IMG/VR virus record: IMGVR_UViG_3300005077_000747
Span: 1 to 23,943 of that record
DNA: 23,943 bases
Reading direction: 5' to 3' (one strand)
Source: a virus
The notes below the pieces were generated by a model. That model ran no database searches, was not told the origin of the DNA, and saw nothing but the letters and a program-made list of their open reading frames with translations. Made by a program: the position numbers and the translations under genes. Below, in pieces: positions 1,341 through 1,412 of the stretch. Positions within the stretch are counted from its first letter, which is position 1; every line of letters begins with the position of its first letter.

Positions 1341-1412
1341 TGGTAGCGGAGGAGGGATTCGAACCCTCTCGAATTGGCGTATGAGGCCAATTGGCGTCCA
1401 ACGCTCTCCGCA
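1341..1412 (-). tRNA. tRNA-like gene with anticodon CAU (Met/Ile2-type), 72 nt with an encoded CCA, and an atypical short D-arm.
   Basis: Minus-strand RNA is UGCGGAG A GCG-UUGGA-CGC CAA UUGGC-CUCAUAC-GCCAA UUCGA GAGGG-UUCGAAU-CCCUC CUCCGCU A CCA. The T-arm is canonical, the anticodon stem is 5 bp, U33 and A37 are present, and the D-loop has GG. Positions 1:72 form a U-U mismatch and the D-stem is 3 bp. Confidence 0.5.

Follow-up and report, generated by a model that had tools for sequence, protein, structure and literature searches.

The window analysed here is the whole 23,943-nt stretch of the virus record IMGVR_UViG_3300005077_000747 from IMG/VR. On its minus strand, behind rsr, the gene of the Ro60 orthologue Rsr, it carries a 72-nt gene (1412..1341) that is a real tRNA gene and is to be annotated as tRNA-fMet-like. 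Judged from its sequence, this gene probably encodes a functional initiator-type tRNA (tRNAfMet) of a phage, in which the D-arm is miniaturised. Initiator-like tRNAs with such a compact D-arm appear to be widespread in viral metagenomes and are apparently undescribed so far; no description of them was found in the searchable literature, which is weak negative evidence.

The initial annotation had placed a tRNA-like gene with anticodon CAU and an encoded CCA at 1341-1412 and had named ARAGORN as a check. ARAGORN called a single tRNA in the 23.9-kb window, tRNA-Met(CAT), with exactly these ends, and the Rfam tRNA family RF00005 agreed, matching 1412..1344 with 31.6 bits against a gathering threshold of 29 (E 0.004, taken over all families and the complete window). 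Read in the RNA sense, the gene is UGCGGAG A GCGU UGG ACGC CAA UUGGC CUCAUAC GCCAA UUCGA GAGGG UUCGAAU CCCUC CUCCGCU A CCA. The U1·U72 mismatch, the canonical T-arm and the U33, CAU and A37 of the anticodon loop, all listed in the initial annotation, are seen in the sequence. Moreover, positions 32 and 38 are both C, and the variable loop has 5 nt. The location immediately 3' of rsr also holds, with the Rsr stop codon 29 nt before the tRNA; the strand, which had been left unstated, is minus.

The D-arm departs from the standard form. A canonical D-arm has a stem of 3-4 bp and a loop of 7-11 nt, together with U8 and A14, whereas the window tRNA has A8 in place of U8, a 4-bp stem with a 3-nt loop and a 3-nt connector behind the stem, and has neither A14 nor R15. 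Its D region (positions 8-26) has 15 nt. In the Rfam alignment, the D-arm has 12 nt against 15 in the model (a local gap), and the 1:72 pair is non-standard. The initial annotation had rightly recognised a reduced D-arm that keeps GG, but had drawn it as 3 bp with a 5-nt loop; the covariation described below favours 4 bp and a UGG loop.

The open end of the acceptor stem is the hallmark of initiator tRNAs, and the isotypes proposed at first (Met, or Ile2) probably fit less well than the initiator. In bacterial initiators the mismatch is 'most frequently C1:A72', with weak pairing tolerated as well (PMC5393177). An open 1:72 keeps the tRNA off EF-Tu and admits formylation (PMC9976931, PMC5393177). 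The determinants of the formyltransferase are the unpaired 1-72, aided by A73, G2-C71, C3-G70 and G4-C69 (PMC9976931), and all of them are present in the window tRNA. The CAU anticodon and A73 make up the identity for methionyl-tRNA synthetase, MetRS (PMC9976931).

A pattern with U1, GCGG, CUCAU, U72 and ACCA fixed, called here the U·U pattern, was run on viral contigs and on a bacterial genome collection. It matched at least 120 loci in the viral contigs, with 104 distinct sequences among the matches listed, and many of these phage tRNAs are nearly identical to bacterial tRNAfMet except at 1:72. The bacterial genomes gave more than 100 loci with U1·U72 tRNAfMet, and those among the matches listed were all canonical initiators of 75-77 nt (GGAGCAG...GCUCGUCGGGCUCAUAACCCGAAGG), from Legionella, Halomonas, Lysobacterales, Chromatiales, Pedobacter, Lentisphaeria, Desulfobacterota and others. 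The idea that U1·U72 is a phage-specific trait was refuted by this bacterial scan: the U·U pair is a natural variant of the unpaired 1:72 of initiators, and is neither a defect nor specific to phages. Some of the bacterial loci (L194, L214, L224) carry the U1·U72 initiator genes in tandem copies. The anticodon arm of the window tRNA had a mean identity of 69% to the bacterial U·U initiators, compared with 50% to elongator-Met-like and 55% to Ile2-like phage tRNAs. The triplet 29-31 of the bacterial U·U initiators was GGG/CCC in 56 and AGG/CCU in 11 of 69; the window tRNA keeps G29-C41 and G30-C40.

The compact-D class of phage tRNA(CAU) was defined by position 8, a 4-bp stem (G10-C25), a G-rich loop of 3-5 nt, a connector of about 3 nt and the CUCAU loop, together with a 1:72 that is not a strong pair and A73-CCA; the window tRNA falls within this definition. 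Among the U·U tRNAs, the D region (8-26) had 18-20 nt in 67 of the 69 bacterial initiators examined, and it had 17 nt or fewer in 11 of the 104 phage sequences compared with 0 of 67 bacterial ones (Fisher p 0.004). A8 was found in seven of the 11 compact U·U sequences, which had been retrieved without fixing position 8. The second scan of viral contigs left 1:72 free, fixed the start of the D region as 'AG' (A8-G9) and required a D region of 15-17 nt. It returned at least 119 loci, with 86 distinct sequences among the matches listed, and at least 62 of these 86 had a perfect 4-bp mini D stem. Their 1:72 was U-A (24), U·U (15), CxA (14), GxA (8), A-U (7) or another combination, with G-C or C-G in 2. 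The strict subset of 44 listed sequences with good T and anticodon arms contained no strong 1:72 pair (0/44), and it had G10-C25 in 40, the initiator-like R11:Y24 in 38 and GG in the D loop in 34.

Within phage arrays, the compact CAU tRNA stands among normal tRNAs of 74-78 nt, and the reduction of the D-arm is limited to the CAU initiator-like gene. Where a locus holds several CAU tRNAs (L302, L310, L349), the others are G1-C72 'UUCAUAC' genes, which are elongator-Met-like, and 'ACUCAUAAU' genes, which are Ile2-like. Since separate elongator-Met-like and Ile2-like CAU genes are present, the compact gene fills the initiator slot of the triad. ARAGORN skipped the compact CAU tRNA yet reported its neighbours in L146, L142, L122, L117 and L105. 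The standard annotation probably under-counts the class.

The closest relatives of the window were compared through fetched loci whose Rsr proteins are nearest to that of the window (L022, L026-L029 and L031). In L022 (Rsr 61% identical), a tRNA(CAU) of 73 nt with CCA lies at 6590-6662, 35 nt after rsr, with a compact D region of 16 nt and G1·U72. The gene order is that of the window: SbcD, SbcC, GTP cyclohydrolase, four RNA modules, rsr, tRNA and DUF7695. The tRNA(CAU) of L026 (Rsr 56%; 2691-2767, 56 bits) has U1·U72, the acceptor UGCGGGG/CCCCGCU and a canonical D-arm, and its first base directly follows the rsr stop codon (2688-2691). An RNase P cut at the 5' end of this tRNA would leave the rsr mRNA ending at its stop codon. 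A covariance model, R1, was built from the compact sequences, the window included, which as a training sequence scores 86 bits. Searches with R1 gave compact CAU tRNAs with U1xC72 at 1173-1245 of L031 and 54-126 of L029, upstream of rsr among the RNA modules. In the L029 tRNA, the near-universal U33 is replaced by C33 (loop CCCAUAA). L027 and L028 have no CAU tRNA near rsr. Overall, a same-strand CAU tRNA or tRNA-like gene is found no more than about 2 kb from rsr in five of the seven closest Rsr relatives with usable flanks, on the 3' side in the window, L022 and L026 and on the 5' side in L029 and L031. No tRNA was found 3' of rsr in 20 IMG/VR rsr loci with Rsr identities of 38-53%, so the link between rsr and the tRNA is confined to the closest clade; likewise, a metagenome scan with the Rsr alignment gave nine loci, none of which carried a 3' tRNA. 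An exact-pattern search of viral contigs with the anticodon and T arms of the window tRNA gave no match, and BLAST of the 72-nt tRNA against 50,697 phage records returned only T-arm fragments.

When a cloverleaf with a 4-bp D stem was imposed on seven compact sequences, 93.9% of cells were paired and 14 of 21 pairs had changed on both sides. None of 500 shuffles was as good, and slid controls were 34-53% paired. The D helix itself was 100% paired, with three of its four pairs varying on both sides. This covariation rules out a simple pseudogene and supports the D-arm with A8, a 4-bp stem, UGG and a 3-nt connector. Of the alternatives offered by the initial annotation, a functional phage tRNA is the one favoured by the calls of the tRNA finders, the covariation, the relatives in phage tRNA arrays and the encoded CCA.

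Several points weigh against an initiator of this form. The Rfam score barely clears its threshold, and ViennaRNA, folding the RNA in isolation, gives a minimum-energy structure in which the D and anticodon regions pair otherwise, as is common for tRNAs. The comparison of acceptor stems is circular, and the acceptor similarity of the class partly so, as the patterns used for retrieval fixed CTCAT and part of the acceptor stem. Pair 31:39 is C31-G39, inverted relative to the G31-C39 of initiators. C38 occurs in only three of the 104 phage U·U tRNAs and resembles elongator-Met-like phage tRNAs. Pair 11:24 is C-G, the elongator-like Y:R in place of R11:Y24, and is shared by six of the 44 strict class members; the numbering of the reduced D-arm is itself uncertain, which affects this assignment. 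The G1·U72 wobble of the L022 tRNA is also seen in some phage elongator-like Met tRNAs. To our knowledge, no tRNA that lacks U8, A14 and the greater part of its D loop has ever been shown to function on bacterial ribosomes.

Some of these features are those expected of a phage elongator tRNA-Met that supplements AUG decoding, with the weak top pair and short D-arm as tolerated idiosyncrasies, a reading that we consider unlikely. CAU, A73 and A37 are Met elongator features as well, C38 (loop ..CAUAC) and C11-G24 are like those of the phage 'UUCAUAC' tRNAs, and phage elongator-like Met tRNAs with A1-U72 or G1·U72 do exist. However, a U·U pair lacks the stability at 1:72 on which EF-Tu binding depends, and the mismatch excludes EF-Tu (PMC9976931, PMC5393177). 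Furthermore, the window tRNA has C32 and not U32, its acceptor (xGCGG) is that of the initiator, the CAU triads hold a separate elongator-like gene and no strict class member has a strong 1:72 pair.

A distinctly unlikely explanation is that the RNA has a non-translational role linked to Rsr, either as a partner or substrate of the Y-RNA type or as RNase P/Z 'punctuation' between rsr and the downstream mRNAs. The association with rsr in the closest relatives speaks for it, as does the fact that the distant phages L034, L038, L335 and L379 likewise have tRNAs flanking rsr. Neither a promoter nor a terminator was found between rsr and the tRNA, and in L026 the tRNA abuts the rsr stop codon. In addition, Salmonella Rsr operons respond to tRNA damage (PMC7790460), and YrlA is a tRNA mimic cleavable by RNase P (PMC4201824). 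The initial annotation had considered a YrlB-like RNA or Y-RNA partner of Rsr, and this proposal was rejected. YrlA (RF02553) gave no match to 1341-1412 at E<=10 and matched only 3445..3338 and 3250..3185; the tRNA has no GUUACUUCG or GNCGAA-type motif and no flanking terminal helix; and four proper Y-RNA-like modules, better candidates, lie upstream of rsr. The full anticodon arm with its invariant CUCAU is conserved, which would be needless for a processing signal or a Ro ligand, and the same class of tRNA occurs without rsr in the fetched flanks at 117 of 119 (compact scan) and 119 of 120 (U·U scan) listed viral loci, leaving rsr in only two and one of them, respectively. A role in punctuation would be compatible with translation and does not exclude it. 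A looser link between the tRNA and Rsr, through a shared RNA island, is possible.

It is very unlikely that the gene is a decaying pseudogene, a leftover of a tRNA array with most of the D-arm gone. Such a relic could explain the low Rfam score and the lone tRNA in 24 kb; in addition, L027 and L028 have lost the tRNA, and 779-851 of L031 resembles a degraded CAU tRNA. However, the four stems, CCA and anticodon loop are intact, the L022 tRNA differs at many paired positions and is still paired, and at least 62 distinct viral sequences show this reduced architecture too, with A8, G10-C25 and the GG loop conserved. Finally, a tRNA-Ile2, in which TilS converts C34 to lysidine so that the isoleucine-charged tRNA reads AUA, is highly improbable: CAU with C32 and A37 is compatible with it and phages do carry Ile2-like CAU tRNAs, but the minor determinants of Escherichia coli, C4-G69 and C29-G41 (PMC9976931), are inverted in the window (G4-C69, G29-C41), the G1-C72, GGGCC acceptor and ACUCAUAAU loop context of the phage Ile2-like genes are all lacking, and the acceptor identity to that group is 23%.

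Under the favoured reading, that of an initiator with a miniaturised D-arm, the tRNA would be co-transcribed with the Y RNAs and rsr. The spacer that separates it from rsr showed neither a terminator nor a promoter. RNase P together with 3' trimming to the encoded CCA would release the tRNA. The host MetRS would charge the tRNA through CAU and A73, and the host formyltransferase would be expected to formylate it because 1:72 is open. The charged tRNA would be excluded from EF-Tu, and IF2 would use it in the ribosomal P site at AUG start codons. The GG of the 3-nt D loop should still build the elbow with the T loop. The site beside rsr would reflect a 'stable-RNA island' of Y RNAs, rsr and tRNAs at the level of the clade, and not a Y-RNA role of the tRNA.

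The reduction of the D-arm might be an escape from host factors aimed at the host initiator tRNA. Host toxins directed at the initiator include VapC-type nucleases, which cleave the anticodon stem-loop of tRNAfMet, and AtaT, which acetylates Met-tRNAfMet (PMC7180214); phage tRNAs have been proposed to evade tRNA-attacking enzymes (PMC10264068). Toxin evasion as the cause of the compact form is speculation. A wider version, to which we assign little likelihood, is that many uncultivated phages carry a dedicated mini-initiator that evades host toxins or quality control. It would keep the determinants for MetRS, formyltransferase and IF2 and lose what toxins and quality-control enzymes see, namely the surface of the D-arm and in many cases also the canonical 31:39 pair. 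With it, the phage could go on initiating translation even as the host initiator is under attack or being degraded. In the clade of the window, Rsr, the four Y RNAs and the mini-initiator would then form one island for RNA maintenance and counter-defence.

Table 1. Features of the tRNA gene and its surroundings in the window (position 1 is the first letter of the 23,943-nt stretch)
Feature	Coordinates	Strand	Basis
tRNA gene, anticodon CAU, encoded CCA, probably initiator-type, compact D-arm	1341..1412	-	ARAGORN, RF00005, model R1, covariation
Acceptor 5' strand U1 G2 C3 G4 G5 A6 G7	1406..1412	-	pairs with 1345..1351 except U1·U72
A8 and mini D hairpin GCGU/UGG/ACGC (4-bp stem, 3-nt loop keeping GG)	1394..1405	-	seven-sequence alignment
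Anticodon arm UUGGC-CUCAUAC-GCCAA; CAU at 1383..1381; G29-C41, G30-C40, C31-G39	1374..1390	-	ARAGORN, Rfam
T-arm GAGGG-UUCGAAU-CCCUC, canonical	1352..1368	-	Rfam, alignment
Acceptor 3' strand CUCCGCU (U72), discriminator A73, encoded CCA	1341..1351	-	sequence
rsr (Ro60 orthologue)	1442..2911	-	Pfam TROVE 9e-23 and vWA_Ro60
Y-RNA-like module 1, YrlA-like with tRNA-like domain	3338..3445	-	YrlA 41.8 bits (gathering 69); fold z -2.3
Y-RNA-like module 2, YrlA-like with tRNA-like core	3152..3299	-	YrlA 28.6 bits on core 3250..3185; fold z -2.8
Y-RNA-like module 3, short YrlB-like hairpin with AUACUUCG	3010..3078, approximate	-	fold z -2.3; motif count
Y-RNA-like module 4, short YrlB-like hairpin with GUUACUUCG	2922..2992, approximate	-	fold z -3.9, 0/200 shuffles as stable
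Promoter-like TTGCCT-17-(TG)TATAAT, candidate promoter for Y RNAs, rsr and tRNA	3603..3631	-	consensus scan, 10/12
72-amino-acid (aa) Cys-rich open reading frame (ORF), status uncertain; ATG 6 nt after CCA	1116..1334	-	weak Zn-ribbon Pfam below cut-off
DUF7695 ORF, conserved downstream neighbour of the tRNA	868..1134	-	Pfam 1e-8; 49% identical to the L022 gene after the tRNA

The likely start of rsr is the second ATG, at 2896, after GGGGAGGG, from which P0001 matches 100%. The best match of Rsr among phage records was a 635-kb uncultured phage with 46% identity. Y RNAs are expected less than 4 kb from rsr and on the same strand (PMC4201824). In each of the four upstream modules a (G)UUACUUCG or AUACUUCG motif is set in a long stem, and none of the modules reaches the YrlA gathering threshold; the same four-module order is found upstream of rsr in L022 and L026. 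Over 59 nt, the core of module 1 (3357-3415) matches 19 Enterococcus phages of about 150 kb with 83% identity, at a site that mostly lacks annotation and may hold an overlooked YrlA-like or tRNA-like element. The 7-mer TACTTCG occurs nine times in the window, where 2.2 copies would be expected, a count that none of 100 shuffles attains. Four copies are in the Y modules, and the others lie at 1319-1325 (-), 3-9 (-), 17237-17243 (+), 17985-17991 (-) and 23086-23092 (+). The copy at 1319-1325, 12 nt past the tRNA and within the 72-aa ORF, was considered as a fifth Y module and rejected, as it has no stable fold (z +0.7) and is not conserved.

A similar TATAAT-A-rich box precedes the modules in L022 and L026. 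No terminator-like site was found on the minus strand between the promoter-like site at 3631..3603 and the tRNA. We infer that a stable-RNA island under one promoter is the simplest account of the proximity of rsr and the tRNA in the clade of the window. Same-strand arrays of 12-17 tRNAs lie upstream of rsr in L034 (29-1625) and L038 (177-2346), an array of 15 tRNAs follows rsr in L335 (137-6987), and a compact CAU tRNA lies about 800 nt upstream of rsr in L379. This suggests that the neighbourhood of rsr and tRNAs is general in large phages.

Downstream of the tRNA, the initial annotation had noted that there is no room for a Shine-Dalgarno sequence before the next ORF; the spacing is indeed short, but it carries little weight because the 72-aa ORF has no homologue in the related loci. 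Elsewhere, the window looks like that of a large phage, with SbcCD-like genes, folE2, QueD, a thymidylate-synthase-like gene, a phage PDDEXK nuclease and sugar-modification genes. The family A DNA polymerase PolA (20812-23253, -) has an N-terminal domain of the uracil-DNA-glycosylase superfamily. The FolE2 GTP cyclohydrolase ORF (5122-6519, -) carries an N-terminal extension that weakly matches LAGLIDADG_2, a combination also found in L027 and L028, and L022 carries FolE (type I) where the window has FolE2. QueD lies at 20060-20455 in the window, and QueC is present in L029 and L031, which suggests a 7-deazaguanine pathway next to the rsr island.

If the favoured reading is true, the bacterial ribosome and the host MetRS, formyltransferase and IF2 can work with an initiator whose D loop has only 3 nt, which until now has been a trait of mitochondria, where the factors have co-evolved, and translation initiation joins the steps that phages supply for themselves. 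The class also marks a blind spot of annotation, as several of its members are skipped by ARAGORN and covariance scores lie at the threshold. The Y RNAs of the window Rsr are to be sought upstream of rsr and not in the tRNA.

Among known systems, the animal mitochondrial tRNAs, e.g., mt-tRNASer(AGY) (PMC4013460, PMC9427863), share the miniaturised D region and the use in translation, which for the window tRNA is predicted from its sequence. Unlike them, the window tRNA keeps a 4-bp hairpin and a GG loop, so that the elbow contacts are probably kept, and its setting is bacterial translation, for which no co-evolved factors are known. With YrlA and YrlB (RF02553; Chen et al. 2014, PMC4201824) it has in common the location less than 4 kb from rsr on the same strand and the T-arm, YrlA being a tRNA mimic, but its acceptor end is free and carries CCA, its anticodon arm is complete, and it has neither the GNCGAA-type motif nor the long terminal helix. 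It resembles the tRNAs of phage arrays in its encoded CCA (687 of 803 tRNAs in the sampled phage loci) and in covariance-model scores below those of cellular tRNAs; however, it is solitary in 24 kb, whereas many class members sit inside arrays. The bacterial tRNAfMet, including the U1·U72 variants, differs in its D region of 18-20 nt against 15, and the window tRNA departs from it in A8, the missing A14 and R15, the 3-nt D loop, C-G at both 11:24 and 31:39, C38 and the phage-encoded location beside rsr. The two share the CUCAUA loop, A73-CCA, the open 1:72, G2-C71, C3-G70 and G4-C69, G29-C41 and G30-C40, the 5-nt variable loop and a standard T-arm. The tRNA gene itself is of a known kind and not a new kind of system, and both of its apparent defects are explained.

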